Made by a program: the position numbers and the translations under genes. Of a stretch of 64,000 nucleotides of DNA, positions 2,113 through 56,180 are shown piece after piece. The stretch covers positions 372,001 to 436,000 of the forward strand of contig JANJGN010000140.1 in NCBI GenBank assembly GCA_026770705.1. The letters are read 5' to 3'. The notes under the pieces are model-generated. The model was given only the letters and a program-made list of their open reading frames with translations. It was not told the origin of the DNA and did no database searches. How positions within the stretch are numbered: the first letter of the stretch is position 1; the number at the start of each line of letters is the position of its first letter. The DNA is from Isurus oxyrinchus (lineage: Eukaryota).

Positions 2113-2627
2113 AAGTAAGGGACCTGCCACCTTTAGGTTTGGGCTAATGTCTTTCTGCTCATCTGCACATGACCCATACGTTGCATTTCGTGGTGGCACA
2201 ATGATCAAGGGTTGCATTTAGTTCTGAGGACACTAGCTTGGGTGCCAGGAAGTGGGAACTTCAGTAAGGAACACAACAACTAAACTCAGAGCAGGTGGTG
2301 ATGGAAGGTGTTTAGGTGTAGAGAGACTGTATGTAAACTACGTAACATTGTGGTGTGAGCACTCATCCTTTTATTGTCGTGTTCAGAAAGTGCCAGTGTG
2401 TGGTGCACTCATGTTCCTCCATCTTTGGCAGGAAGGGATCATTCTGGCTTCCTGTTATGGTGTGGTTAAGACAGCAGAGATAAGGTGTTTATAGTCTGGG
2501 ATCCTTAAATTCCTGTGTCTCTCGTGTGGAGACATCAGTTGCAAGTTTCATGGTCTGGTCCACTTGGCTCTCAGTTGCCAGTGACTGTGCATCAGTCCCT
2601 GTTCCAGAGTCATTCCCTGTTCCAGAG

Positions 2628-2815
2628 TCAGCAATGCAAGTTCTTCATGAAGGCTTTGCGGAATGCCACGTTGAAGATCGTGTAGATGATGGGGTTGATG
2701 ATGTAACCCAGCCAAGCGCAGGCGCTATAGACCACCGGCAGGATGTAGCACCTCTAGTAGTGGACGTTCAGGATGTGAGTGATGAAAAATGGCAGCCAGC
2801 AGATGATGAAGACGC
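2628..2815 (-). pseudogene. DRD2: DRD2-like last coding exon (TM6-TM7, C-terminus)
   Basis: ggcag|[61 protein letters not shown]; ends in the D2-type terminal Cys; AATAAA about 250 nt downstream (~2370). Confidence 0.93.
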
Positions 2816-3019
2816 CTGCCAATCTGACACAGAGAGGAAAAGAGTCGTCAATGCACCTGTCCATTTGTCATTGCAACGCAGTGACTCGCGAAAGGGTTCC
2901 TACCCCACTCAGAGCTCCTCAACCATATGGCAACAGGGCTCCATTAATTACTTGCAGTTGCTACTTCTTTGATAAAATTCACATTACATTCATGGCACAC
3001 AAGCTTATACATTTGGTAT

Positions 3020-3680
3020 CATTGGTATAGAATACAATCCTAGAACATAGTGATTCCATACAACTTAGCCTATTGTTCTATATCATTGTAACACTATAGG
3101 ACTCAGACTAATCTACTGGGAGTATAGTACACCATCCATAGCCAATTAGTCTAGATCATTACATTTCCATGCAGCTTGGCCTATTACTCTAGAACATTGT
3201 GGTCTGGTGGAATGCAGCCTATTGTTCTGGATTACAGCAAAACCCATAGAACTTGGACTGTTGATCTAAATTATTGTGCTACAATGCAACTTAACCTATG
3301 GTTCTCGATCATTGTGCCACAAGGCAACTTTGCCTATTTTCTCAATCATTTCAAGACTATGGAAGTTAGTCCACAGTTGTAGAGCACGTAATTTAGCCTA
3401 CAGTCCAAGATCATTGCAAAATCCATGGAATCTATCCTGTTCTTCTAAATCATTGAGACACAATGGAACCTCGTCTATTGTTCCAGATAGTTGTAACTAC
3501 ATAGAACTCGGTCTGTTGTTCTAGATCATTGTAAGAACCGATAGATGTTTGCCTATTCTCGATCAGTGTGACACAACAACACCTAACCAATTGTTCTAGA
3601 CCACCAAGACGATGGATCTTGGGCTATTGTTCTAGATCATTGTGACTCGTTGGAACATAGTCTATTTGTTCTAGTTTGTT
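3020..3680. repeat. Degenerate ~39-41 bp tandem repeat
   Basis: Recurring cctattgttctagatcattgt...ga(a)ctt unit. Confidence 0.75.
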
Positions 3681-3690
3681 CTGGACTCAC

Positions 3691-4017
3691 CTAAGACAAC
3701 CACCAACATTTGTTGCTTTCTTCTCCTTCTGGTGGGACAGTTTGCTTTCCCTGCTGATTTGGCCGCTGGCACCTGTTTCTCATCTGACACCCTCCGCACC
3801 TCAAAAGCGCTCCGCCTGAAGAACCTTGCTTGGCCATTGCACTTGGAGTCTGCGGATACCTCGAAGGAGGAAGGTGACTTCCATTACCAGCCATCAGGCA
3901 GGATCTGGAAGTGGTCTCGAGCCGGAAAGCCAGTGGAGTTCCTGTTGGCCTTGGCCTCTCGGGAGGCCCCACAAATCTGGCTCCCTCAGAGTAAGGGATT
4001 GCTTCTCGTACCAGTGT
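3691..4017 (-). pseudogene. DRD2: DRD2-like coding exon 6 (ICL3 to start of TM6), frameshifted
   Basis: Polypyrimidine tract plus tag acceptor; motifs PPER, LPDP, NGQA...FEV and KLSHQKEKKAT are spread over different frames; about 2 nt lost in AT[Q]MLVVVL; gtgag donor. Confidence 0.8.
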
Positions 4018-4179
4018 CTAGGATGCCAAAAAGAAGAGGAAATGGGTGTTACCAACAGCCAATAGCACAGACCAGAGCACACACAAATCACAGGAGAGGA
4101 CAAGCAAGGGAATGACAAAGGGTCCTTGTCTCCAAGTCACCATTTTGTACATGGGGTGTGGGCAGTTAACTTGTTCACA

Positions 4180-4625
4180 GAATCATACTGCACAGGAGAA
4201 GGCCATTAAGCCCAGCGAGCCTCTGATGGCTTTTTGAAAGAGCTTTCTAATTAGTCCCACACTTCAGCCCACTCTTTGCCCAAAAGCCCAGCAAATTTTT
4301 CCCTTTCAAATATTTATCCAACTCCCCTTTTGAAAGTTCCTACTGAATCTGCTTCCACCACCCTTTCAGGCAGCGCCTTCCAGATCACAGCAACTCACTG
4401 TGCAAAAAGAAAAAAAAATCTCCCCATCTCCCCCTCTTTCTTTTACTGATTCTCTTCGATCTGTGTCCCTCTGGTTACCAACCCTCCTGATACAGGAAAC
4501 AGTTTCTCCTTATTTACTCTATCCAAACCCCTCATGATTTCGCCCACCTCGATTAAATCCCTCTCTGTACCTTCTCTGCCCTAAGGAGAACAATCCCAAC
4601 TTCTCCAATCTCCCTATTGAAGTGA
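4180..4625 (-). mobile_element. CR1-type LINE 3' fragment
   Basis: Typical shark CR1 3' end (ccaccctttcaggcagcgccttccagatcac...). Confidence 0.7.
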
Positions 4626-4916
4626 AAGGAATTGGGGTTCTGTGCGATGGGAATGGATCGATCTATTGACATTCTGCGCAATAGGAGCGAAGGAGAAGGG
4701 GTTTGTTCCATTGGATTGTGTGCAATGGGAATGAGTGGGAAATGGTTTGGGTCCATTGAGATTCCATGCGATGGCAGCGAATGGGAAGAGAGTTGATCAA
4801 TGACCTTTGGAATGATTGGTGACCTTTGTGACAAGTGGGAATTTCGGCCACTGAAATTGAACTGGGAATTTGTCAATCAGCTCCGAGGATTCTGATGTCT
4901 CCAGGTAAGGCCTTAC

Positions 4917-5000
4917 CAATTTCTTTTTACTCACACTAGTGCTCCCGTTTGATTGGACCATTAAAGTGCAAAGTTTGACATCTGGGTGTGTGCACTTATT
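4917..5000 (-). pseudogene. DRD2: DRD2-like coding exon 5, homolog of the D2-long alternative ICL3 exon, 84 bp
   Basis: tttcag|NKCTHPDVKLCTLMVQSNGSTSVSKKKL|gtaagg; resembles the mammalian D2L insert [29 protein letters not shown]. Confidence 0.85.
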
Positions 5001-5189
5001 CTGAAACTAAATAAAACAAAAAAAAAATGGAATTATCGACCCTAGCAACAGAGTAGGCACGAACATGGATACTAATACTTCATATTGGCCGTAAAGAAAA
5101 GCCATTGTTTACAATTTGAATTGAGAGATTATCCAATAAATAGGGCAAAAATCCTTTCAAAATTACTGACTTAAGTATTACATTTTTTA

Positions 5190-5600
5190 AAAAATATATT
5201 CATTCATGGGATGTGGGCTTCGCCGGCTGGGTCAGCATTTGTTGCCCATCCCTAATTGCCCCTTGAGAAGGTGGGGGTGAGCTGCCTTCTTGAACCATTG
5301 CAGTCCATGTGGTGTAGGTACACCCACATTGCTGTTAGGGAGGGAGCTCCAGGATTTTGACCCAGCGACAGTGAAGGAGCAGCCGATGTATTTCTAAGTC
5401 AGGATAGTGAGTGACTTAGTGAGGAACTTCCAGGTGGTGGTGTTCCCTATCTGCTACCCTTGTCTTTCTAGATGATCATGGTCATGGGTTTGGGAGGTAC
5501 TATCTAAGGAGGCTTGGTGAGTTGCTGCAGTGCGTCTTGTAGATGGTACACTCTGCTGCCACTGTGCGTCGGTGGTGGAGGGAGTGAATGTTTTAGGTGG
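5190..5600 (-). mobile_element. Family A LINE 3' fragment
   Basis: Reverse complement of the 1055-1270 tail plus RT C-terminal codons. Confidence 0.75.
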
Positions 5601-6113
5601 AATATAATTATGTGATATGCACAGTAATATTGCACAAGGAAATATCACCTTGAAAAGCATATTTTTTTAAATAATAAAGCAAGACACTGTCCCTTCCAAA
5701 CACTCCCAGGACAGGTACAGCACGGGATTAGATACAGAGTAGAGCTCCTCTGCACTGTCCCCACCAAACACTCCCAGGACAACGTGAGGTTAGATGTACA
5801 TTTCCCTCTATACCTGCCAATCTGCAGCCTCCTACAAAAGACCAACATCCTATACCTGTGATGACATCACTTCCTCAGTCATCCTGTATCCTCCCTTAAA
5901 TGGCAGGTTGAAAGCAACTCTGCATCATTGGCAGCGTGTCTGGTACAAAATGGATCGAAGCAACTCTAACCCATGTCGAATTGAACCCGTGCAGCCTCTA
6001 CACAAAGCAAACTTGTGCAGGATTTAATCGCAGAGTCTAGAGGTTAAAGGTCAGTCACTTACTACCCACATCCCTTCATTTTAATATTTGAGCCTGTTAT
6101 TTACGCTTCTGAC

Positions 6114-6313
6114 CTTTATGGGCGGTTGGGTTTCATGTTCCAAGGCAACGCTAATCCTCTTAGCTGCCACGCACTTCCTCCTCCATCTCAGCATGGCATA
6201 GATCTGGACATAAACCGACAGCGTCATGATGAAGGGAACATAGAAGGAGACAATAGAAGAATATAAAATAAAAGAAGGGTTCATGATGGCACAGATGGTC
6301 TCGTTCTTTTTAT
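6114..6313 (-). pseudogene. DRD2: DRD2-like coding exon 4 (TM5, start of ICL3)
   Basis: ttccag|DKKNETICAIMNPSFILYSSIVSFYVPFIMTLSVYVQIYAMLRWRRKCVAAKRISVALEHETQPPIK|gtcaga. Confidence 0.92.
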
Positions 6314-6419
6314 CTGGAACAGGACAGAGCACATTCCTGGTCTCCATAATTGCAAAAACTCTCATTGAGTCACTGGAGAATATGCAACTAAAGGTTCACA
6401 AAGATGACATCCGAATTAC

Positions 6420-7160
6420 GAGCTTATAACTACCAGGCAAGACTGAAGAGGTTGGGGCTCTTTCCTCTAGAAAAGAGAAGGCTGAGGGGTGACCTGATAG
6501 AAACTTTTAAAACTATGAAAGAGTTTTGACAGTGTGAACCAAGAGAAATTGTTTCCACTTTTGGGGTGGGGGAGGGTAACGTGGGTGGGAGACTAGAACT
6601 GGACGGCCATCAAAATAAGATAGTCACTAGTGTTGTATGTGCCGGCATGCCACTGTAATGTAAAGGTGTTCAGCAGAGTAAGAGTTAGAGTGGGACTGGA
6701 GAATAACACCATGCACGGTATGATGTATAAAGTCACATGGTAACAGACTGAGAGAACAGTCTGGAGAGAACACTCTGCAACCAGCCTGCATGGAGGTAGC
6801 AGCGCCATGCATGACAGTAACCTGAGATCTGTAAATAGATAAAGAGTTCATGTTTAAATCTACAATTCTCAAGGTCTCATCATTGAGACACCACTGCACA
6901 CCAGAATACAACATGGTTGGCAGTGGTGAGATACCAGCACTATCAGCGTAGTACAACAACTAGTAAATCCAATGGGGAATTCGGGAGAAACTTCTTCACC
7001 TAGAGAGTGGGGAGAATGTGTAACTCACTCCCACAGGGAGTGGTTGAGGTGAATAGTATCGATGTATTTAAGGGGGAAGCTAGATAAACACATGAAGGAG
7101 AAAAGAATATGTGATGGGAGAGATAAGGAGGGGGTGGGCAGGTGCTCGTGTGGAGCATAA
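6420..7160 (+). mobile_element. CR1 LINE 3' fragment interrupted by an LTR-derived insertion
   Basis: LGLFSLEKRRLRGDLIE-type codons at 6450-6510; CR1 resumes after 6963. Confidence 0.7.
6631..6958 (+). mobile_element. Minimal LTR element: LTR + PBS-like motif + second LTR terminus, 5-bp TSD
   Basis: Starts TGTTGTA and ends TACAACA; ACTAG on both sides (6626-6630, 6959-6963); internal TACAACA ending at 6912 is followed by tggttggcagtggtgag. Confidence 0.75.
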
Positions 7161-7480
7161 ATTCTCCTAATCTCCTCTGGTTCTTTTCCTGATTCTCTTC
7201 AATCTGTGGCCCTCTGGTTACCGGCCTTCCTGCCACTGGAAACATTTTCTCCTTATTTACTCTGTGAAAACCTATCATGAATTTGCATGCCTCAATTAAA
7301 TCTCCCCCTTAACCTTCTCTGTTCTGAGGAGAAAAACCCCAGCTGCTCCGGTCTCTCCATATAACTGAAGTTCCCAATCTCTGGGACTGCTGTGAGAATT
7401 CTCATGCCCCTCCCTCACTATAGAAGGAGACAATAGAGGAATAAAAGGTGAAAGTAGGGTTCATGACGGGCACAGCTTAC

Positions 7481-7620
7481 CAGGGTGGTTTTTTAGCCTG
7501 AAGAGCAGCGGGCATGAGATGGCGAAAGACAGCACTCAGACCATGGTTATCATCAACGTGACTCTCTGCTTGGAGCTGAGGTGGGTTTTGTAGAGCATTG
7601 GCATGGCAATCGCTGTGTAG
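7481..7620 (-). pseudogene. DRD2: DRD2-like coding exon 3 (ICL2-TM4), 140 bp
   Basis: ttgcag|c [45 protein letters not shown] g|gtaag; the TM4 Trp codon is TGA (7536-7538). Confidence 0.92.
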
Positions 7621-7829
7621 CTGCAAGGGGTGGACAAGAAACAGGTTAGAGCTGTTGATGAACCGGACGGTCTTTAAGAAGCTCCAAAATAGGTGGTGAG
7701 TGAAGCAGGGAAGTAAGTTCAGTAAGCCAAATGGCCTGCTCCTGTAGCCATGGCAACCAAGGGAGGTTGAGGATGAGGATCCATTGATCCAATCGGAAAA
7801 AGGTACACAGTATTCCCAAGAACTAGCAA

Positions 7830-8760
7830 ACATCCAGACAAATAGGAGCAGGAGGAGGCCATTCGGCCTCTCGAGCCTGCCCCACCTATTCATTAAGATC
7901 ATGGCTGAGGTTCTACCTCAACTCCACCTTCCCACCCTCAGAGCCTTAAAATCTATCAATCTGAGTCTTGAGTATACCCAATGACATAGCATCCATAGCT
8001 CTCTGGGGTAGAGAATTCCAAAGATTCACAACCCTTTGAGTGAAGAAATTTCTCCTCATCTCAGTCCAAAATGGCTGACCTCTAATCCTTAGCCTGTGAC
8101 CCCACCCCACTCCCCCCACATTGTTCCAGACTCCTCTGCCAGGGTGGGGTTAACTGCCTCTTAGAATTGACCGTGTTAAACTCCCGAAGAATTTTGTACA
8201 TTTCAATGAGATCACCTCTCATTCTTCTAAACTCTAGAGAATATGGGGCCATTCTACTCGATCTCCCTTCATAGGACATCCCTCTCATCCCAGGAATCAG
8301 TTTAGTTTAAGTTAGGGATGGGGTTAGGGAGTTAGGGATGGGGTTATGGAGTTAAGGTTAGGGGTAGGGAGTTAGGGATGGGGTTAGGGTTTGGTGTAGG
8401 GAGTTAGGGATGGGGTTGAGATGTTAGGGTGGAGGTAGGGAGTTAGGGATGGGGTTAGGGCTGGAGTTAGGAGTTAGGGATGGTGTTGGAGAGTTAGGGA
8501 TGGGGTTATGGAGTGAGGATTAGGGATAGGGAGTTAGGGATGAGGTTAGGGTTGGGGTTGGGGTTAGGGGAAGGGTTAGGGGTTAGGGGTATGGTTAGGG
8601 ATCAAGAATTGTGCACAATACTTCAGGTGTAGTCTCACCAAAGACCTATATAATTATTTGAAGACTTCTTTACTTTTATATGCCAATCCGTTTGCAATAA
8701 AGGTGAACATACCATTTACCTTTCGAGTTCCTTGCTGTACCTACATGCTGACCAATATTT
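7830..8760 (-). mobile_element. CR1 LINE 3' fragment interrupted by a telomere-like repeat
   Basis: ORF MRGMSYEGRSSRMAPYSLEFRRMRGDLIEMYKILR. Confidence 0.75.
8302..8600 (+). repeat. Interstitial telomere-like (TTAGGG-variant) array
   Basis: Repeated gttagggatggggttagggag and ggttagggg. Confidence 0.8.
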
Positions 8761-9199
8761 CGCAGTTTCCCACCGTTTCCAACCAGGATCACAAGCGGGA
8801 CAGCCTCTCTCATGGGAGGGTCCCATTCTCTATTGAGCTGCCAGGAGGAGGGGTGGGGGGAACCTTGTAAATGCACATCAGGACAACCTAGAGTCATGAA
8901 AGGGCCTATCACTGCCCGTTGGGTCTCGCTGGCCCCACTCATTCCAAAACTAGGGAGCCCAGGGAAAGTAATGGAGGAAGGAGGGAGGATGGGGGGGGGG
9001 GGGGGGCCGTAAAGGCCTGAGGAGGGAGGTGGTGGGGGGGGGGGGGCGGGGGTGGGGGGGCGTGGTGAAGAGATGGAAGAACAGAAGAGCTACCTTTGTG
9101 CAGCCCAGACGGCATTCCACTGACAATGGCACAGATGTGTCATGTACTCTCATGGGACCCTGATGTGTATGAATTCAGATGGACACATCGCAAATTATG

Positions 9200-9920
9200 A
9201 AATATGAGCAGGAGCAGGCCACTCAGCCCCTTGAGCCTGTTCCGCCATTCAATAAGACCATGGCTCACCTGATTGTAACCTCAACACCACATTCCTGCCT
9301 AACCCCAATCACCTTTCAAACCCTTGTTAACCAAGAATCTATCTAGCTCTGCCTTAGAAATATTCAAAGACTCTGCGTCCACTGCCTTTTGAGGAAGAGA
9401 GCTCCAAAGACTCACGACCCTCTGAGAGAAAAAACATCTCCTAATCTCTGTCTTAAAAGAGCGATCCCTTATTTTTAAACAGCGACCCCTCGTTCTAGAT
9501 TCTCCCACAAGAGGAAACATCCTCTCCACATCCACCCTGTCAAGACACCTCAGGATCTTAAATGTTTCTTACACATCTAAATTCCAGTGGATACGTGCCT
9601 AACCTGTCCACCCTTTCCTCATACGACAACCCACGCATTCCTGGTATTAGCCTGGTAAACATCCTCTGAACTGCTGCCTTCAGACCTTTCCTTAAATAAG
9701 GTGACCAATACTGTACACAGTACTCCTGATACGGTCTCACCGGTGCCCCGTAAAACTGCAGCATAGCCTCCCTACAATCAATTCCCCTCGCAATAAACTA
9801 TAACATTCTATTAGCCTTCCTAATTAGATGATGTGCCTGCATTTTGTGATTCATGCACTAGGACACCCAGATCCCTCTGCATCTCAGAGCTCTGCAAACT
9901 CTCACCATTTAGATAATATA
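9200..9920 (-). mobile_element. CR1 LINE 3' fragment
   Basis: ORFs MDVERMFPLVGESRTRG..., LQFYGAPVRPYQEYCVQYWSPYLRK and QRDLGVLVHES. Confidence 0.85.
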
Positions 9921-9943
9921 ACTCGTACTTTCGGGAAGGAAAG

Positions 9944-10161
9944 TGTGATAGAGTTGATTTTCTAGGCAGCTTTGCTTGGTGGAAACGTTGGACTTTATTT
10001 ACAAGACGGCAGCAGTTACATGTGTGCAAAGGACTCTATAACGAAAGAAGAATTCTCTCCTCGAGGGTCCCCGTGCTTCTAATTCATTGGTTTATACAGT
10101 TCATGTTATTTTACAACACAGGCATACTCTTAAAGCGTTTATCAGAACTATAATTACTGCA
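9944..10161 (-). mobile_element. 3' LTR of the Gypsy element (~218 bp)
   Basis: TG...CA termini; AATAAA on the element strand (tttatt ~9994); preceded by a purine-rich PPT-like tract. Confidence 0.75.
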
Positions 10162-10830
10162 GCCCCCACCCACCACCACCCCCCCAACACACACACACCT
10201 CCCACTCCACCCGTAAACTTTTCTGTACCTTTTGTATTTTAGAGGAGATTTATCTCATTACATCACAATATTTACACAGGTCATCAAATTACAAGTTCAG
10301 TCTTTAAGATGGTTTCCCGATCCCTGCGGAACGTCGCAGCTCCTGACTTCCGATTATTTTGCAGGAACCACATGCTCTGGAACTGCATTAACATCAGATA
10401 CAGGCAGTTCAGTGTCTTCCACTCCAACAGAGACATCGGGCACGTCTGTCCTTGGCTGAGCAACTTCAACAGGAACCATAGGTTCAGCAATGGTTACAGG
10501 TGGAATATAATTTTGTTGGGATATCTCTCTTCCTCAATGATCCACATACTTACAGGTGATCCGCCCCTCCACTTCCATGTGGTATGACAATGGTCCGGTC
10601 ACAGAGCTTACTTTACCAGCTAGCCACTTCGGTCTTCCACCGACATTCCTTACACACACTGTTTCTCCAAGTAAATTGTTGCTCATGACTATGCCAATCA
10701 GGAGTTGCTTTTTGGTTCCCTTGACTTTTTTCCACCTTCCCCTCCAAATTGGGATTGTTCTGTATTGAAATAGGAAACGAGCAAGTTTAGTTTCTGATGA
10801 TTCACCTGTTAACTTTTTCATTCCTGCCTT

Positions 10831-11541
10831 TTATTGTCTTTTCAAGATCTTCCTCCTTTTTGTCCTCTGCTTTCTACCACAGAGTTTAGTCTTGGCCTTC
10901 CTCTTGACTTCACTGTCGGCCAGACTTCTCTCAGGTAGTTTCTCAACTTGTCTTAGTTCAGTAATTGAATTACCCATGACTTCATTATCTACTTGCATCT
11001 TGGACAGTTCTACGATCTTTCCTTTCAAGGTTCCTTTAGCTGCATTCAGCTGATTCTTCAGCTCTTCTGTCTCTTTCATGTATCTGTTGGCTTCCTCCTG
11101 GAACCTTGAACATTGCTGCGTCTTCTGTGCCAACTGGTTCTTCAGTTTGTTCATGGTGACGTTAAATTCTTCCTGCTTCTCTTTGTAATTTTCCAGAGGT
11201 ACAAATTTTGACCTGAGGGATCCTTGTAGTGTGTGAGGGTCTTTCAACAGGGTTTTTCTTTTCTTTGTGCGAAACTCATTCACTTCAACTTGAACTCTAA
11301 TTCAGCAGAGTCGCCTTGAGTTTCTTTTGCTGTTCTTGCATGTCATTGTTTAAAACAGTCTTCATTTCTTCAGGTTGCTGAATAGCTACACACTCCATTT
11401 GCATCCAATTGCGGTCCTTGGACTTTCCAGGCTCTTTCTGAAGGGCCTTGACTTGTTCCTTCTTCAACTCAGGAACTATTTCTGCTTCCTTTTGAAATCT
11501 CACTGGCCAATCAAGGTTAGTTTCCCTCAACCAGTTTCGAC
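10831..11541 (-). other. Captured cellular coiled-coil gene fragment (UACA/RAI14/ANKRD24-like) inside the Gypsy element, decayed
   Basis: Heptad-rich ORFs (LQGSLRSKFVPLENYKEKQEEFNVTMNKLKNQL; CVAIQQPEEMKTVLNNDMQEQQKKL) sit where RT/RNaseH/integrase core should be; no retroelement motifs. Confidence 0.6.
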
Positions 11542-13022
11542 TTAGAAGGCTTGGTCTAATACCATCACTGGTAGTTGTGCTGTTTGGTATCTATAATAAG
11601 GAGGTGCTCTGGTGATATATTTTACCTGGATTTCTTCGCCTGTGCACGTTTTCAACTTGGTAGCCGTTTGTTCCAAATTTAATTGTTGAGCACCTTTATT
11701 TAAATATTTGAAAGTGTGTTCTACTACTACAGTGATAGAAGCACCAATGTCTACTTCCATTATTAAGAATTTCCCATTCACCTGTAAAGTGACAGTGACT
11801 AGCTCTGCCTTCCCAACTCTCATGTTGAACAAGGATTAAATATCAGAATTGGTTGTTTCTGGCTCTTCCTCACTATATACTTCATTGGACTTTGTTTGTT
11901 GCCCGGAAGCCTGTTTTAATGTCGCTTTGCAATGTTTTAATATGTGTTCTCTTTTGCAACAAAAATAACATTCCACTTTTTTAAATTGCCAATCATTAGG
12001 AGTGTGATCGTTTCCACGTCGATAAAATTAGTTTTCAAATTTGCTAATAAACTGGTTCCTCAGTTTTCGGTTATTGGGGGCTGTTTCCCGCTTCACGGCG
12101 GAGTCCTGGATTTTCGTGCTCCTTTCAGTTGACCATTTCTGCCCAACTAGGAAAATGGCGCCATTTTGTGCACCTTGAATCGCTCGTGAATCCCTTCCAG
12201 CACTTTCCATCGCAAGCACTATTTCTAATGCTTTCTTAATATCAAGGTCCACTTCAGTCAGCAATCTTCACTGAATAGCATCCTCTTGCACGCCAGAGAC
12301 AAAAATGATCTCTGAGCATATCCTTCAGGCTTTCACCAAAATCACAATATTCCATTAGTTGTTTTACTTTCGCCACATGGGTAGCAATGGTCTCTCTCGG
12401 GGCTGTATTCAGTGAATTGAACCTGAACCTCTGCATTGTGACTGAGGGTTTGGGTTGAAAATGTTCCTTATTGTTACTAATTTACTGAGGGTCTTCAAGT
12501 CAGGGGCACTGGGGGTCGTCAAGCTTCGAATTAAACTGTAGGATTTGCCCCTATAAATACTCAGGAGAATCACTCTCCTCTTTTCCCTCCTCTGTGGTTA
12601 AAGGTACAATCCTATATTTATCAGAACTATAATTACTACAGAAAACCCTTTTATAGACCCACAGATATGTGGTTGACTCTAACCCTAACACTGACGGGTC
12701 ATTCAAAATTTGAAGGGTGATATTGACCTTGCCAGCAGATGCCCACATTCCTAAAAATAAATCCAATGGTGAATTCAGGAGATACTTCTTTACCCAAAGA
12801 TTGGGGAGAATGTGGAACTCGCATCCAGGGAATGGTTGAGGTGAATAGCATCGATGAATTTAAGGAGGAAGCAGGATAAACACACGAAGCAGAAAGAAAT
12901 AGAGGATATAGTGAAGATGGGGAGGGAGGGACCTCGTGTGGAGGAGAAATACTAGCATGGAACAGATGGGCCGAATGGCCTGTTTCCACAATGGCGAACG
13001 TCACTGAAAGCCCTCCAATTAC

Positions 13023-13132
13023 CTGTCGATGCTGATGGCACACAGGCCGAGGATTCTGGCTGTGCACAGCATCACATCCAGTGTCACAAAGATGTCACAG
13101 TTAACCCAGCTGAAACGCCACTCGCCAACCAC
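13023..13132 (-). pseudogene. DRD2: DRD2-like coding exon 2 (TM3), 110 bp
   Basis: ag|[36 protein letters not shown]+ag|gtaatt; keeps the TM3 Asp; absent from the ORF track. Confidence 0.93.
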
Positions 13133-13659
13133 CTTTAACCAGAGCAAAGTACAAACAGCATCAGCAACAGTTCACAGCCAGGTTAGCATCCCTTCAAACA
13201 AACCTTTCCACGAGATCACAGAACACCTCCAACCATCTGGAACTCTATATCCAGCCTTAAATCCAGATAAAAGATCTGCATTCCTACAGTGCCTTACCCT
13301 TTGGTTCTGACCTGAATCGTTAACTCTGTTTCTCTCTTCACAGATGCTGGGTCATTCCAGCATTTTCTGTTCTTATTTCGGATTTCCAGCGTCCTCAGTG
13401 TTTTGTTCTTCGACTGCCTTTGGGCACAAGACACCTAAGAGCAGTGCTTCTAAAACACTTTCGTTAGTAGATCACTTTTGCAGGGGGTGTGGGAGGGGCT
13501 GGGGAGGCTGCAGGGAACAGGGCCAAAGGGCCACCAACCGCTCCTACCATACGCACTTCCAGTAGTTACCCCCAAATAGGCTCATCAGAATTAACGGGAA
13601 GAATGGCTCCAAGGAATATGTTTATGGAAACTTAAGGTTCACCCAAACTCAATTTTATA

Positions 13660-14695
13660 ATTCTCATCCCTGTTTTCAAATCTTTCCTTGTACCCCCTGC
13701 CTATCTCTGGAACCTTCTCCAGCCCCTACAACCGCCACCCCCCCCACCCCCCCATCTCTGTAAACTCGTCCAGCCCCTGCAACGCTCCCTATCTCTGTAA
13801 CCTCCTCCAGCCCCTACAATGCTCCCTATCTCTGTAACCTCCTCCAGCCCCTACAACCTTTCCTATCTCTGTAACCTCTTTCAGTCCCTACAAACTTTCC
13901 TATCTCTGTAACCTCCTTCAGTCCCTACAACCTTTCCTATCTCTGTAACGTCCTCCAGTCCCTACAATGCTCCTTATCTCTGTAACCTCCTCCAGCCCCT
14001 ACAACCCTCCCTATCCCTGTAACCTCCTCCAGTCCCTACAGCTCTCCGTATCTCTGTAACCTCTTCCAGCCCACACAATCCTCCCTACCTCTGTAACTTC
14101 CTCTAGTCCCTAAAGCTTTTCCAATCTCTGTAATCTCCTCCAGTCCCTACAAACCTTCCTATCTCTGTAACCTCCTCTAGTCCTTAAAACCCTTCCTATC
14201 TCTGTAACCTCCTCCAGTCCCTACAACCTTTCCTATCTCTGTAACCTCCTCCAGTCCCTACAACCTTTCCTGTCTCTGTAACCTCCTCCAGTCCCTACAA
14301 CCATCCCCATCTCTGTAACCTCCTCCAGCCCCTACAACCCTCCTTATCTCTGTAACCTCCTTCCACCCACACAACCCTGTCTATCTCTGTAACCTCCTCC
14401 AGTCCCTACAATCATCCACATCTCTGTAACTCACTCCAGCCCCTACAACCCTCCCTATGTCTGGAACCTCCTCCAGCCCCTATCTCTCTCTCTCTTTCTT
14501 TCTATCTCTCTCTCTCTTCTGCTTTAAGACGTTCCTTAAAACCTCACTCTGTGACTGAGCTTTTGGTCACCGATCCCTCATATCTCCTGATGTGGCTTGG
14601 GGTCAAATATTGTTTGATAATCACTCCTGTGAGGCATCTTGGAGACACTTCATTAAATTGAAGGTGCTGTAGAATCATAAGTTGTTGTTGAAATT
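13660..14695 (+). mobile_element. L2-type LINE 3' end with an internal ~37-38 bp tandem expansion
   Basis: Unit cctcctccagcccctacaaccctccctatctctgtaa about 20 times (13690-14480), followed by an L2 3' UTR (tttaagacgttccttaaaacc...). Confidence 0.8.
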
Positions 14696-16344
14696 ATAAA
14701 CTTTCTGCTGCTGTTTTGCTGTTGACAGATTTGCACTCATTGTCTTTTTCATTAAATGACACATCAATTATTAGTTCATGCCAGAGAAAAAGCCTAGACA
14801 TTTTCAAAGTCTAAACATGAATATGCTAAGAGAATGTATTGATTTGAATCATTGAATATGTGTTATAACATCATCTTAACAATCTTCTGTTGAGAAACTA
14901 ACATTTATTCTGCACCTACATTAATCAAGCTTGGAGAACATTGGCTTAACACTTGGGTCATTTTATGCATTTGTCACTGATGTGGTGTCTTGGATGAACA
15001 GACCACAGGAGGCTCAGATACAGGTTATGATCGTTCATTCGAGCAATTGCAAGGAGGTCACCATCTCAATACAGCTTGAGACAGTGCTCTGTTAACATTT
15101 TTATATTATTGGTCACATACAAGAACATGCTCCAGATTCCGATCTTGTTAACATATAGGTTTACATTAAACAGACAAGTCTCTGGTACATGCATCATCTG
15201 ACCCTGCTTTCACCCAGGCAGAGACCTGCCTTCCTATCTAAACTGGGACCGTCTGTCCTTCCCCTATCTGTTGAAGAGCACACTTAATCTATGTTATTGC
15301 CACCCTCTGACTCCAGTCTAATTCCCAGGACCTTGCTGGTGATTGCAAACCCTGAGGGTGTCCAAAGTTCGAGAGTGTAAAAGGTTCATCTGGTTTAACT
15401 GTTTAATTGTTGATTTACTGATTTGCATTGGCCTGCCTATAGATTCTAATTTAAGTAATTCATTCCCTTTTAATGAATTCTCCCTGACCATAAATTCTCA
15501 TTTACTTTCTTCCCCCAAAAGTCACTGAGGTCCATAGAGATATTACATCTCCATTGAAAAGAATATAAAAGGCGAAAATAGTAATTCGGTTAATTTCAAG
15601 ATGAAGAATGTTCCAAGAGATTAAACGCTTGTAGACAATCTAGATAGTGCGAAGTATAAATTAGTTTGACAAGCGCTGCAGCAAAGAATATTACAGTAAT
15701 TCTCATTTCCTATAAAACTAATTTTGCTCCATGTTTAATTGTGTGAAAGTAGTATGATTAGATATCTAGCGGAGACATTATACAAAATTAATCATTTAGC
15801 AGTTGGATGATAGTTAATGAATATTTTATCATTTGTGCACTGAATACCTTCATTATGCCGGCTGATTTCATGTTTGTTTTTTCTTTATTTGAAGTAGTAA
15901 TGAAAGCAATTGAGAGATGGGATTGCGAGATTCACTCTTAGGAGGATCACAACACTCAGAAGTGTGCCCGACAGCTGCAATACTATCCCCCATCCATGAA
16001 GATCGTTCAGCGGCTGAGGGTTGGCCGCGACAACATGGGAAAGGTTTTTGCTAAGGCAGATAAGCCTTCGGTGCAAGTGAGCGTCACCAGCAGGGGGCGA
16101 GATGAGGAAGAGCGGCTTTTAATCACACAGCGAGTTGTGATCTGGAAGGCGCTGCCTGAAAGGGCGGTGGAAGTAGATTCAACAGGGACTTTCAAAAGGG
16201 GGGAACTGGATAAATACTGGAAGGGAAGACATTTTCAGGTCGACGGGGGAAAGAGCAGCGGGGGACGGGGGTGGGGGTGGGGGGGTTGCGGGGAGAGTGG
16301 GGACTAATTGGATTGATCTTTCAAAAAGCTGCAGCAGACTCAAT

Positions 16345-16746
16345 TTTCTTTTTATCTTTTTCATGGGATGTGGGCGTCGCTGGCAAGGCCAGCATTTGTT
16401 GCCCATCCCTAATTGCCCCTGAACTGAGTGGCTTGCTCGGCTATTTCAGAGGGCAATTAAAAGTAAACCATATCGCTGTGGATCTGGAGTGACATGTAGG
16501 CCAGACTGGGTAAGGACGGCAGATTTCCTTCCCTAAAGGGCATTAGTGAACTAGTTGGGTTTTTATGACAATCGATGATAATTTCATGGTCACCAAGACT
16601 GAGAGTGGCTTTCAATTCCTGATTTATTAATTGAATTTAAGTTCTACCAGCTGCCTTGTCGGGATTTGAACCCGTGTCCCCAGAGCGTTAGACTGGGCCT
16701 TCAGATTACTAGCCCAGTGACATTGCTACTATGCCACTGTCTCCCC
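16345..16746 (-). mobile_element. Full-length tRNA-derived SINE
   Basis: A-box-like tggcatagtag, B-box ggttcaaatcc, family A tail. Confidence 0.8.
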
Positions 16747-16852
16747 ATTTGATGGGCCAAATGGGCTCCTTCTGTGCTGGACCATTTCATGATGACCCAA
16801 TCGAATGGTGAAACAGGCTCGATGGACTGAACGGCCTGCTCCTGTCCCTATT

Positions 16853-17380
16853 GTGTGCAGTTTTGGTCTCCTTACCTAAGAAAGGATATACTTGCCATAG
16901 AGGGAGTGCAGTGAAGGTTCACCAGGCTGATTACTGGTGTGGCAGGATTATCTTATGAGGAGAGATTGGGCTGACTAGGCCTGTATTCACTGGAGTTTAG
17001 AAGAATGGGAGGGGATCTCATTGAAATGTATAAAATTCTGACAGGGCTGGACAGACTGGATGCAGGGATGACGTTTCCTCTGGCTGGTGGGGTGGTCTAG
17101 AACAAGGCATCATAGTCTCAGGATATGGGGTAGGCCATAGAGGGAGGAGATGAGGAGAAACTTCTTCACTCAGAGGGTGGTGAATCTGTGGAATTCTCTA
17201 CCACAGAGAAGTCACTGAGTATATTTGAGAAGGAAATAGATGGATTTCTAGTCTCCAAAGGCATCAAGGGATGTGGGGAGAGCACGGGATTGTGGCATTG
17301 AGATAGAGGATCAGCAATGATCATATTGAATGGTGGAACAGACTCCAAGGGCCGAATGACCTACTCCTGCTCCTATTTTC
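16853..17380 (+). mobile_element. CR1 LINE 3' fragment
   Basis: CVQFWSPYLRKDILAIEGVQ*RFTRLI...GDLIEMYKIL codons. Confidence 0.85.
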
Positions 17381-17383
17381 TAT

Positions 17384-17512
17384 AGCCAGGATTTTATGGC
17401 CCCACCGCAGTGTGTCTCTCCCTCAGAGGAAGTGGCGAGCCATTTAAATCTCCATTTAGTTCGGCGGGATCGTAATATCCCGCCGGGCAGGAGGGGCCAT
17501 AAAATCCTGGCC
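17384..17512. mobile_element. MITE (PIF/Harbinger-like) with ~20-bp TIRs and 3-bp TSD
   Basis: (a/g)gccaggattttatggcccc ... ggggccataaaatcctggcc, flanked by TAT/TAT. Confidence 0.8.
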
Positions 17513-17771
17513 TATGTTTCTATACGGTCACGTTCAGTCTTGTGTTGTTCACCAATCGCCTGGTATTGAAATGGATGACCAGAAGAGAGACTTTGTTCTG
17601 GCTGTGACTGATGCGCAAGTGACTGGCTCCAGGAAGGGAAGTGGGAAAAGGACATAGGACGTCTTTGGCGGTGAGTGGGATCATTGAGGCATGATGTCGG
17701 TAGCTGCGAGGCCCAACGCCCTTCGGGGCCCTCCCACCTATCGATACGCGGGACTGAACTAACGGTTTTGC

Positions 17772-18050
17772 CTCTAGATAGATGACCCAGGGCATCACCA
17801 GCATGGCCACCAGTAGGTCTGTCACAGCCAGGCTGATGATGAGGTAGTTGGTGGTGGTCTGCAGTGCCATCTCGCTGGGCACTGCCATGCACACCAGCAC
17901 ATTGCCAAACACCACCACGAAGATCAGGAGGCTGAGCAATGCCACGTAGTAATTGTAGCGATGCCTCTACTGCTCACCGGTCGAGTCGCTCCAGTGCCCC
18001 AGCTCCCTCATCTGCGAGTCATTCAGGGCAGCCATGTTTGGAGCAGCCAT
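17772..18050 (-). pseudogene. DRD2: DRD2-like coding exon 1 (N-terminus, TM1-TM2)
   Basis: [92 protein letters not shown]; in-frame TAG at 17967-17969; donor is GC (gcaaaa) rather than GT. Confidence 0.92.
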
Positions 18051-23310: not shown

Positions 23311-23530
23311 GCTGCTGGTGTTTCATTCCTGTTTTCTCCCCTTGATAATTTGGTGTTGAAAATTGGGTAGCACATTCACTTCCGCTCCGTCCAGAGACCG
23401 AGTTCCTCATTGCAAGTGTCCTTCCAATCTTCCTTCCCTGCAGCATCCACATAGCGGACAGTCTCGCTCCAGCAGAGAGAGATGTTCTCGATCATTCAGG
23501 GCTGCACTGGTGCTGCCTGTACTGAACTCT

Positions 23531-31341: not shown

Positions 31342-33053
31342 GATAATAGAGGAGGAGGATTTGCAGTCAGATAAAGCAAACCAAACCTCACGTCTGACAG
31401 GGTCAATCGGTTCATTGGAATCTGAAGATTCATACATCTGAAAGGATTTAATTGACTGCCTCAGCTGGAAACTGGTGAGAGGCTGCTTACCTGCTCCTCC
31501 TGTAGGAAGGGATTGATGGAGCTGGTAAACATGCTGACACGACAGCGAACTCACAATAGCGAGAGACCGTTCACCTGCTCAGTGTGTGGGAAGAAATTCA
31601 TGTGTTCATCCAACCGGCTGGCACACCAGCTTGATCACATTTATGAGGATCCTCTTCAATACTCTGACTCTGAGAAAAGCTTTGAAATCTCCAAGGAACT
31701 GGCCCAACACCAGCAAGTTCACACTGACGAGAGACCGTTCAGCTGCTCCCACTGTGGGAAGAGGTTCAGGCTGTCCTCCTGCCTCGTGGATCACCAGCTC
31801 CTTCACACACACGAGAGGCCGTTCAGCTGCTCCCAATGTGGGGAGTCATTCAGCAAGTCAGTGCATCTCACTGAGCACCAGCAAGTTCACACCAAGGACA
31901 GGCCATTCAGCTGCTCCCAGTGTGGGAAGAGATTCGCTCAGTCCTTCCACTACACTGAGCACCAATTGGTCCACTCAGAAAAGAGACCTTTTAAATGTAC
32001 TGAATGTGAGAAGACCTTCAAAAGAAGCATTAATTTGCTGAGACAACGGTGCATTCACACTGGGGAGAGGCCGTTCCCCTGCTCCGTGTGTGGGAAGACA
32101 TTCACTCATTCAATTCACCTTCTGACACACAAGCGTGTTCACACCAGGGAGAGGCCATTCCTCTGCTCTGTGTGTGGGAAGACATTCACTCGATTTTCAC
32201 ACCTTTTGACACACGAGAGTATTCACACTGGAGAGAGGCCGTTCACCTCCGCATGTAGGAAGGGATTCGTTCAGCCAGCTGACCTGCTGAAGCACCAGTG
32301 GGTGCACACTGGGGAGAAGCCATTCACTTGCTCGCTGTGTGGGAAGGGATTCACTCGATCCTGCTATCTGCTGAAGCACCAGCGAGTTCACACCGGGGAG
32401 AGGCCGTTCCTCTGTTCCATGTGTGGGAAGAGTTTCCCTCGTTTGTCCCACCTTGTGATACACGAGCATGTTCACACTGGGGAGAGGCCGTACCTTTGCC
32501 CCGTGTGCAAGAAGAGATTTACTTGTTTACAACACCTGCTGAGACACTGGACTATTCACACTGGGGAGAGGTGGTTCACATGCCCTGTGTGTGGGAAGGG
32601 TTTCACTGAGTCATCCAGCCTCCAGAGACACTGACGCACTCACACTGAGGACAGGCTGTTCACCTGCTCTGTGTGTAGCAAGAGATTTGCTCAGTTGTCC
32701 TACTACACTGAACACCAACGCGTTCACACTGATAAGAGACCTTTTCAATGTTCTGAATGCAGAAAGAGCTTTAAAAGAAGCAATGACCTGCTGAAACACC
32801 AACGCACTCTCACCAGGGAGAGCCGTTCCTCTGTTCCGAGTGTGGGAAGGGATTCGCTCATTCGTTCGGCCTGCTGAGGCATCAATGTACTCACAGCGGG
32901 AAGAAGCTGTTCACCTGCTCTGAGTGTGGGAAAGGATTCATTGATTCATCCCGCCTGCTGAGACACCAGCGAGTTCACACTGGAGAAAAACCGTTCACCT
33001 GCTCTGTGTGTGAGAAGCGATTTACTCAGTCTTACAGCCTGCTGAAACATTAG
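31342..33053 (+). pseudogene. Tandem C2H2 zinc-finger gene, truncated or decaying (open frame 31516-32634)
   Basis: Acceptor tttacag at 31335-31341; HTGERPF linkers. TGA at 32632-32634 interrupts a finger; fingers continue in frame, frameshift ~32820, TAG 33051-33053; several Cys/His losses. Confidence 0.85.
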
Positions 33054-35408: not shown

Positions 35409-36543
<1,135 letters not shown>

Positions 36544-36869
36544 CTGGAAAAGGAGTTTACAAAGTCATTCCTGTCAGTCCAGGATAGAAATTCAGAGCAG
36601 ACAATTCTAGTTTCTATGGAATATTTTTTCCTCCCTAGTTCCCCCAAAGCTGTAAGTCCCCACCCCACACACTCTCCCTCCTCCCTGGGCTGAAATCCAA
36701 ACCCATGTCACCATCTCCAGCATTTCTTTCCTCCACTCCCAGTTTTCTCCCTCTCTCTCCTCTCGCTGGGTTCAGTTCTCCAGCTCCTGTCTGCAGAGTG
36801 AGAATAAAATAAATGAGTCAATTATTTTCTCTCCTGGTCACTGGGACTGTGACTCGCTTCAGCCCCACA

Positions 36870-37330
36870 AAGAGCACCATTTACAGCAGGGAGAAACCAG
36901 ATATGTGTTCTGTGCATAGTCAAGGCTTCACTGATCATCTCTTTTGTTAAAACACAAGTGCAATCACACTGGAGAGAAACTGTGTCCATGCAGGGATCTT
37001 GAAAGCAATTCAATTATCTGTCAGATCTGGAAACTCAATGCCACAGTCACACAGGGTAGAGGCTGTTCTCCTGCACTGAGTGTGGGAAAGGATTTATATC
37101 ACACTTTCAGTCACAGCAGGGAGTGCACACTTACAAGAGACTGTTTAAATGTTCTGACTGCAAGAAGAGATTCAAAAGCACAAGGGATCTGCTGAAACAC
37201 CAGCGAGTTCATACTGGGGAGGGTCTGTTCACCTGCTCCGTGTGTGAAAAGAGCTTCACTCATTAATCTAACCTGCAGGCCAACCAGGGAGTTGACAAGT
37301 GACAGCAGGGGTTGGATTCTGCTGTTATTG
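36870..37330 (+). pseudogene. Degenerate C2H2 zinc-finger remnant
   Basis: [51 protein letters not shown] with frameshifts. Confidence 0.75.
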
Positions 37331-52320: not shown

Positions 52321-52839
52321 ACATCTCAGCCCATTTCCTTATTTTCCTTTATTACGGGCATGTCCAATCCATGTCCCACGGTTGGATTGTGGCCTCCGAA
52401 GCCCCTCTATATGGACTCTGGAGCTGTTGTTCAAAATGCTGGTAAGTCGGGTAAGTGGAGTTGAAGGTATCAGTAAGGAGCTGCTCCTCCAATCACAGGC
52501 CGGCCTTCTATCCCATTAGCAGCTGACAGACTGGCTTGTGGGCCTATCAGCAGTAAAAGTGGGAGACAAACAGATTGTGATTGCAGGGGCAGTGAGCACC
52601 CGCTGGAGAAAGGTGCAGGGAGCCGGGAGGAAGCGCATGGAGACATTGTCTTTCTTCTATCTCTGGCACTTAGCGCCTTTCCCTGGGAATAGAAAGGATT
52701 TCAGGAGGACGAGAGACACTGAGGGAGAGAGAGAGAGAGAGAGAGAGATAGAGTGGGACCTAGGGCGGCTGGGGCCTCGGCTCACAACTGCTTTCGCCCT
52801 GCTCTCCCCGCTATAGCCCGACTCTGCACTTTTGCCGCC

Positions 52840-55800: not shown

Positions 55801-56180
55801 CCCTCTCGTCTCTCTGCCCTTGCCCACTCCCCACTCTCTGCCCTTGCCCACTCCCCCCTCTCTGCCCTTGCCCATACCCCCACTCTGACCTTGCCCCCTC
55901 TCCTCTCTCTGCCCTTTCCCCCTCCCGCCTCTCTGCCCTTTCCCATCTCTGCCACCCTGCCCTTTCCCCCTTCCGCCTCTCTACCCCTTCTCCCATAGCT
56001 CTCTGCACTTATTCCACGGGTGCCTGCCCTTGCCCCGGCTCTTCCCATTCCTTTGCCTCATCTATATGCACTTTCCACTGGATCGCTACCCTTTCCCCCA
56101 ACTCTCTTTCCTTCCCCCCACCTGCCTGCCCTTTCCCCCAGGCTCTCTGTGCTTTAGCCCCGCCTCTCTGCATTTTCCAC
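52840..56180 (-). repeat. ~3.3-kb 24-bp tandem array, G-rich on the IgM sense strand
   Basis: Plus-strand unit cctctctgccctttccccctcccg (sense cgggagggggaaagggcagagagg); most homogeneous at 54490-55600. Confidence 0.92.

Follow-up and report, generated by a model that had tools for sequence, protein, structure and literature searches.

Does the D2-type dopamine receptor gene on a 64,000-nucleotide (nt) stretch of Isurus oxyrinchus DNA (contig JANJGN010000140.1, positions 372,001 to 436,000; the whole stretch is hereafter the window, and all coordinates are window positions) still encode a receptor, and if not, how did it arise? The gene occupies positions 18050 to 2628 of the minus strand, as seven coding exons split by introns. 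It is very probably an unprocessed, DNA-level duplicate of shark drd2l that belongs to a multi-copy dead lineage and has been carried along as a neutral passenger of segmental duplication. Members of this lineage, to judge from the predicted proteins, share a deletion in transmembrane helix 7 (TM7) and frameshifts in exon 6.

Gene structure and lesions

A tblastn search with the intact basking shark protein matches all seven exons (E 1e-48 to 8e-12); in each of ten triplet-shuffled windows used as a control, the best match has E >1. All six acceptors are AG, five donors are GT and that of intron 1 is GC, and the introns measure 875–5402 nt each. Exon phases are 0, 2, 1, 0, 0, with exon 6 ending in phase 1 once its net −4 frameshift is counted, which agrees with the human D2-class pattern of 0, 2, 1, 0, 0, 1 across seven coding exons. 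The exons are as follows.

17772..18050, minus strand: coding exon 1 (N-terminus to TM2), 279 nt, phase 0; contains a TAG stop and is followed by the GC donor
13023..13132, minus strand: coding exon 2 (extracellular loop (ECL) 1, TM3), 110 nt, phase 2
7481..7620, minus strand: coding exon 3 (intracellular loop (ICL) 2, TM4), 140 nt, phase 1; contains a TGA stop
6114..6313, minus strand: coding exon 4 (ECL2, TM5), 200 nt, phase 0
4917..5000, minus strand: coding exon 5 (D2L-type loop exon, flanked by two phase-0 introns), 84 nt
3691..4017, minus strand: coding exon 6 (ICL3 to start of TM6), 327 nt; contains a 9-nt deletion and three frameshifts
2628..2815, minus strand: coding exon 7 (TM6, TM7, helix 8), 188 nt; contains a TAG stop and the 9-nt TM7 deletion

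Another exon 5 candidate, near 5860–5990, was discarded in favor of the real exon at 5000–4917. The lesions were located by aligning the gene, with frameshifts allowed, to the intact basking shark protein (P0004); 371 of 442 aligned residues are identical.

17969-17967, minus strand: stop TAG, exon 1, codon 28
7538-7536, minus strand: stop TGA, exon 3, at W4.50
near 4982, minus strand: in-frame deletion of 3 nt (one codon), exon 5
near 3993, minus strand: in-frame deletion of 9 nt, exon 6
near 3885, minus strand: −1 frameshift, exon 6, first of three
near 3745, minus strand: −1 frameshift, exon 6
near 3713, minus strand: −2 frameshift, exon 6
2756-2754, minus strand: stop TAG, exon 7
near 2699, minus strand: in-frame deletion of 9 nt, exon 7, removing N7.45-S7.46-A7.47 of TM7

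Across the exon 2/3 junction the DRY motif reads DSY (R3.50 to S), and exon 2 carries S3.39 to R and N3.42 to G, with D3.32 retained. Under the residue numbering and pocket positions used here, the D2-class pocket is otherwise also kept (S5.42/S5.43/S5.46, W6.48, F6.51/52 and H6.55), and the positions lost are R3.50, W4.50, S3.39, N7.45 and S7.46. The open frame, DRY motif, W4.50 and whole TM7 of a functional class A G protein-coupled receptor are all missing. With its first stop already at codon 28, the gene is unable to encode a receptor. The GC donor is probably a mutated GT: where the window reads A-K-P, V-K-P stands in the read-through model P0003 of the basking shark. Having kept its six introns and 5.4 kb of flank, the gene is neither a retrocopy nor an intronless processed pseudogene. 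An earlier note on this DNA had described seven intron-separated exons in DRD2 order and phase that were not a retrocopy, with three stops, frameshifts, DRY changed to DSY, a TM7 deletion and a GC donor; the tblastn matches, splice sites, phases and alignment bear out that description.

Identity of the paralog

Exon 1 retrieves 492 proteins among 632 candidates, and the top five of the best 120 listed are four basking shark models and one white shark model (82–84%). When the full-length horn shark protein is used, shark "A-like" models lead the best 120 of 5003 matches, followed by lungfish, coelacanth, gar, bichir, bowfin and sturgeon. The coelacanth and gar clusters include XP_006010333.1 and XP_015224221.1, named DRD2L and drd2l, respectively, in the supplement of PMC12198306 (this and the other papers are cited from the portions of each that were available). 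A search of 50% clusters supplied only outgroups. The trees use nine full-length shark drd2l models, leaving out those of S. torazame (model insertion) and C. plagiosum (partial).

In an unrooted tree of 33 rows, shark A genes, bony fish drd2l and the window gene stand apart from all DRD2 (100/100). The join of shark and bony drd2l has support of 94/98 in one tree with D3-like outgroups, after which C. punctatum (low quality) was dropped, and of 89/68 in another with two partial D3-like outgroups; the label D3-like is our own, assigned from sequence motifs. Within shark drd2l, the window gene joins the two intact lamniform genes at 100/97–98. By this placement the window gene is drd2l, not DRD2, and the drd2l paralog that the earlier note had raised as a possibility is upheld. 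Of the published drd2l neighbors, XRCC1, ETHE1, PHLDB3 and IRGQ left no Pfam sign in 119 of the 158 open reading frames (ORFs) between the gene and the IgM gene upstream; only 2.6 kb of the window lies downstream, and a duplicate that has moved need not keep its neighbors. ANKK1, TTC12, TMPRSS and ZW10, the neighbors of DRD2 proper, were not seen in the window either, where there is little downstream DNA.

A family of dead copies in mackerel sharks

Basking shark has five models of this gene, one intact and four degenerate, on four sequences. A 282,690-bp scaffold carries the intact gene, the 65.16-Mb chromosome 23 (PMC13044535) carries two degenerate models, and the remaining two are on scaffolds of 301,784 bp and 85,902 bp. 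The degenerate models (XP_078425993.1, XP_078425876.1, XP_078391629.1 and XP_078392795.1) are annotated as protein-coding, and several lines of evidence link them to the window gene. First, the TM7 deletion is present in all four and in none of seven intact shark proteins. Second, two substitutions are common to the window and all four, A replacing T in TM7 and S replacing G close to the N-terminus. Third, the out-of-frame exon 6 reading that follows the frameshift near 3745 is seen directly in three of the four, and the fourth reads the window's alternative exon 6 frame. Fourth, three of them also share a segment of the flank:

23406..23495, minus strand: upstream segment, tblastn match to P0005 residues 1–30 (73% identity, E 3.5e-7)

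This segment occurs once in the window and is the predicted first exon in three basking shark dead copies, P0003 and P0122 having the same N-terminus. Because three dead models start with it, flanking DNA was copied as well, in a unit that extends 5.4 kb or more beyond the ATG on its upstream side. Fifth, with out-of-frame parts masked and gaps ignored, the five dead copies group at 91/90. Unlike the window gene, the degenerate models lack the three stops, the DSY change and the in-frame deletions of exons 5 and 6. The end branch of the window gene measures 0.13–0.18, longer than the 0.024–0.039 of intact genes, and so fits release from selection.

P0002, P0003, P0005 and P0122 are basking shark RefSeq D(2) receptor-like models that are probably pseudogenes annotated as coding. 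Because four basking shark D2 models look dead, a naive count would show a false receptor expansion.

Lesions and copy signal in short-read contigs

Short-read contigs were compared with window positions 2600–7700, which hold exons 3–7. Twenty runs from two organisms (A and B) contain part of this interval, and four, from at most three samples, were compared: X1 and X4 from organism A and X6 and X11 from organism B, with 50–65% of each run covered. In organism A, six listed contigs with 0–2 differences have depths of 175–235, and contigs diverged by ~7–10% have depths of 19–36, the listed exception being X4 record 21 (depth 53), which lies in a repeat. In organism B, contigs 1.5–3.5% from the window have depths of 95–280 and those 7–13% away have depths of 20–54; X11 record 16, 7% away at depth 114, fits the pattern poorly. 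These depths suggest roughly 4–6 similar copies in each of the two species.

Individual lesions can be followed in the contigs. X1 record 8 (7469–7650, depth 172.5) has no differences over the exon 3 stop, X1 record 4 crosses exon 5 with its one-codon deletion gap-free, X1 record 3 and X4 record 19 do the same for the exon 6 deletion and first frameshift, and X6 record 25, from organism B, crosses the TM7 deletion gap-free. The exon 7 stop base is found in X1 only (~140 of 317 depth) and in no listed contig of X4, X6 or X11. Several of the lesions recur in short-read contigs (exons 3–7) and at other loci in another shark; the earlier note had proposed checks in raw reads and in other sharks. 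At the first frameshift, the base missing from the window is carried by depths of 31.7 of 263.9 in X4 and 0 of 78.1 in X1, and by 265.8 of 314.9 in X6 and 54.2 of 80.6 in X11; because these proportions differ between the organisms, they hint that different copies expanded in A and B. X11 record 9 (2650–2856), at low depth and ~10% diverged, spans the TM7 deletion with 2 gap letters. In organism B it represents a dead paralog of greater age than the high-copy subfamily that it accompanies, and since it carries the TM7 deletion, the idea that the low-depth diverged contigs are the intact parent was dropped.

Origin of the window copy

Unprocessed duplicated pseudogenes travel within segmental duplications, and a history of this kind is very probable here. 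In a lamniform ancestor, one drd2l copy would have been duplicated from the intact locus. The duplicate would then have lost N7.45-A7.47 and, through the damage to exon 6, its reading frame early on. The dead copy would have been duplicated again within larger segments, each sub-lineage adding lesions of its own, with the parent drd2l remaining intact elsewhere. Because the TM7 deletion is common to the window and the degenerate basking shark copies, a single duplicate would have died in a lamniform ancestor before it was copied again. The window copy has no role as a protein and would be a neutral passenger in a zinc-finger- and immunoglobulin-rich region.

The earlier note had offered a choice between unitary loss of drd2l and a segmental duplicate carried along with an amplifying IgM/ZNF block. 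Of the second branch, the segmental duplicate is borne out by the shared lesions, the multi-copy depth and the grouping of dead copies, and carriage by such a block is putative. The choice itself was too narrow, since drd2l identity and duplication hold together. Unitary loss is unsupported because intact drd2l models exist in both lamniforms with proteins and the window copy is one of several; a unitary pseudogene would be a single copy with no intact paralog, and here there are a multi-copy depth signal and a family with shared lesions. Similar to duplicated pseudogenes generally and to the Pogona Drd3 pseudogene, a single lost gene (PMC12198306), the window copy keeps introns, has accrued lesions and shows sped-up protein-level change. 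Unlike Pogona Drd3, its lineage was amplified again after death and retained across species.

Several points weigh against this history. Alternatives to one clade of dead copies are not rejected by the approximately unbiased (AU) test (p 0.083 and 0.155), and once the other dead copies are left out, the trees place the window gene beside the intact white shark gene (93/84–96/87). The basking shark evidence consists of predicted proteins, not DNA. X1 and X4 are one sample, which may be the source of the assembly, and contig depth is not copy number, so that depth-based copy estimates are rough. We infer an intact parent in this species from its relatives, as no listed organism A contig spans an intact allele at every lesion.

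The IgM neighborhood and alternative explanations

The unit that multiplied may have been larger than the receptor gene and its flank. An IgM minicluster block comprising IgM, zinc fingers and dead drd2l has not quite an even chance of being that unit; it would extend the history of a re-duplicated dead drd2l copy and does not exclude it. The features concerned are as follows.

44176..50229, minus strand: IgM constant-region gene, CH1–CH4, secretory tail, TM1 and TM2; open frames and AG/GT splice sites
31456..33050, plus strand: C2H2 zinc-finger array with internal stops and frame changes
35412..37263: two interrupted C2H2 zinc-finger remnants, ~35.4–36.3 kb on the minus strand and 37.06–37.26 kb on the plus strand

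The IgM TM2 stop at 44176 lies 26.1 kb from the receptor ATG, on the same strand. The earlier note had placed the receptor gene 26 kb from an IgM cluster; the distance stands, and the word cluster is unsupported because the 13.8 kb that precede CH1 yielded no V, J or usable recombination signal sequence (RSS). Pfam finds no V domain in 45 of the 56 minus-strand ORFs upstream of IgM, the other 11 being LINE-like or of low complexity, and a pattern scan of the 13.8 kb (one 213-nt gap) finds no J motif or usable RSS; this search would miss a decayed V or one past the window edge. The window IgM may be V-less, as are some listed white shark entries: table S1 of PMC12227049 gives 9 IgM entries on white shark chromosome 27, of which 2 are marked missing V and 3 are marked "pseudo?". 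The window resembles the elasmobranch IgH miniclusters and antigen receptor complex of that paper in its IgM constant gene, any linkage to the complex being putative. A dopamine receptor goes unmentioned in the main text and two supplements of PMC12227049.

A block of this kind is favored by the same-strand IgM gene, by the shared flank of at least 5.4 kb toward it, by the V-less IgM of white shark chromosome 27 and by the two basking shark dead copies that share chromosome 23. The intact white shark drd2l, in addition, lies off the antigen-receptor chromosome, because its 16.52-Mb sequence is shorter than the 17.12-Mb coordinates listed for chromosome 27 (PMC12227049). Against it, adjacency to IgM is known for the window copy alone, the read comparison covers only 2600–7700, the zinc-finger search gave no close shark paralog (at most 51% identity, best 120 of 4363), and IgM loci also exist outside the main complex. 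On a fuller and tentative version, somewhat less likely than not, sharks would have kept the drd2l ohnolog, a dead copy became fixed in a multiplying mackerel-shark IgM/zinc-finger block, and its lesions record minicluster turnover. A frameshift found in about one copy-equivalent in one species and in nearly all copies in the other would then reflect expansion of different block members in each lineage.

Loss of the gene from this species altogether, every drd2l copy being dead with or without extra copies, is improbable. It would suit the lack of a demonstrated intact allele in organism A, and the diverged contigs of low depth may, like X11 record 9 in organism B, come from dead paralogs of greater age. 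However, both lamniforms with proteins have kept an intact gene, the two proteins being 94% identical to each other, the lesions are older than this species' copies, and one X4 contig, at depth 31.7 of 263.9, lacks the first frameshift.

Derivation from DRD2 proper or DRD3 is very unlikely. The fall of the drd2l join to 89/68 with two partial D3-like outgroups leaves it some room, but the AU test rejects both placement of the window gene within shark DRD2 (p 2e-53) and a duplication confined to sharks (p 4e-113). In the 33-row alignment, 8 columns favor joining shark A with bony drd2l, apart from both DRD2 groups, and none favors either of the other two groupings; at these columns the window has the drd2l state in 4 of 8 and the DRD2 state in 0 of 8. 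Eight shark species carry both drd2l and DRD2, on sequences of differing length where given. Exon 1 scores 103 bits against human D2 and 81 against D3, and the loop exon present here is lacking in four elasmobranch Drd3 genes (PMC12198306). Least credible of all is an intact gene whose stops and frameshifts were introduced by assembly error: there are two gaps in the window and its DNA is repeat-rich, and the exon 7 stop base appears in X1 only among listed contigs, but the recurrence of lesions at other loci in the independent basking shark annotation and the gap-free contigs have already refuted error for the exon 3, 5 and 6 lesions and the TM7 deletion.

Other features of the window

Directly behind the exon 3 donor lies one further piece of the receptor gene, which looks like an old local duplication of part of exon 4:

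7420..7476, minus strand: remnant of ~56 nt, similar to exon 4 in its 5' half

Intron 2 (~9970–12640) holds a decayed remnant resembling a long terminal repeat retrotransposon, with a weak aspartyl protease match (E 0.012), in which ~250 codons of coiled-coil-like frames replace much of pol and are possibly a captured host fragment; Atlas and Pfam searches gave no identity for the coiled-coil piece. A degenerate GGGTTA-rich tract lies at 8290–8590, intron 1 has an array of 37-nt period at 13640–14570, and upstream of IgM, at 52600–56000, there is a long purine/pyrimidine-biased repeat. A GC-rich, promoter-like stretch with CCAAT boxes precedes the first zinc-finger gene at ~29.7–30.1 kb. A weak TAS2R match at 40.5 kb (E 0.0012, below the cutoff) was taken as chance.

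drd2l in sharks

Full-length drd2l models are present in nine sharks, including both lamniforms sampled. The intact basking shark model is XP_078391688.1 and that of the white shark is XP_041032699.1; RefSeq calls them D(2) dopamine receptor (A)-like. Shark drd2l models are therefore already in RefSeq, under D2-like names. The intact models have ~85% protein identity to the window gene and an identical exon layout, and the upstream sequence at window positions 18.5–18.6 kb matches them too; unlike the window gene, they have open frames, DRY, W4.50 and a complete TM7. Sharks thus retain a drd2l that looks, from its sequence, to be in working order. The S. torazame model (P0008) has ~200 extra loop 3 residues that look like a piece of a transposon.

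The shark genes fall in the same clade as drd2l (the D2-beta branch) of coelacanth, lungfish, gar, bowfin, bichir, sturgeon and teleosts (PMC5900934; PMC12198306). The window gene shares with bony fish drd2l its seven coding exons, a loop exon between phase-0 introns and common loop residues, and differs in being dead and multi-copy, with the published flanking genes not seen in the window. The lungfish (P0013) also retains a drd2l-clade gene and is unnamed as a carrier in the available text of PMC5900934. That paper reports DRD2l as lost in cartilaginous fish, with a synteny analysis on elephant shark, and PMC12198306 describes extra paralogs unique to bony fish; in the available portions of both, absence from cartilaginous fish was apparently drawn from elephant shark data. 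The earlier note's view that drd2l survives in amphibians runs against the tetrapod loss reported in PMC5900934, and none appears among the best 120 of 5003 matches, itself a weak indication. No batoid, sevengill or chimaera drd2l was in the same best 120, which says nothing on absence. The searched literature, outside which lie subscription papers such as Yamamoto 2015, holds no report of shark drd2l or of lamniform dead copies.

The duplicated pseudogene is itself an ordinary kind of object with no likely function. Two by-products are useful: drd2l is retained in sharks, and a dead copy has multiplied in at least two shark species. If the multiplying block included IgM, the pseudogene would be a neutral, selection-free clock for turnover of the IgM cluster. 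Shark drd2l confirms an origin in the gnathostome ancestor, inferred in the available text of PMC5900934 from tree shape alone, and removes one proposed loss of drd2l for sharks. Studies of dopamine in sharks accordingly face two D2-type genes.

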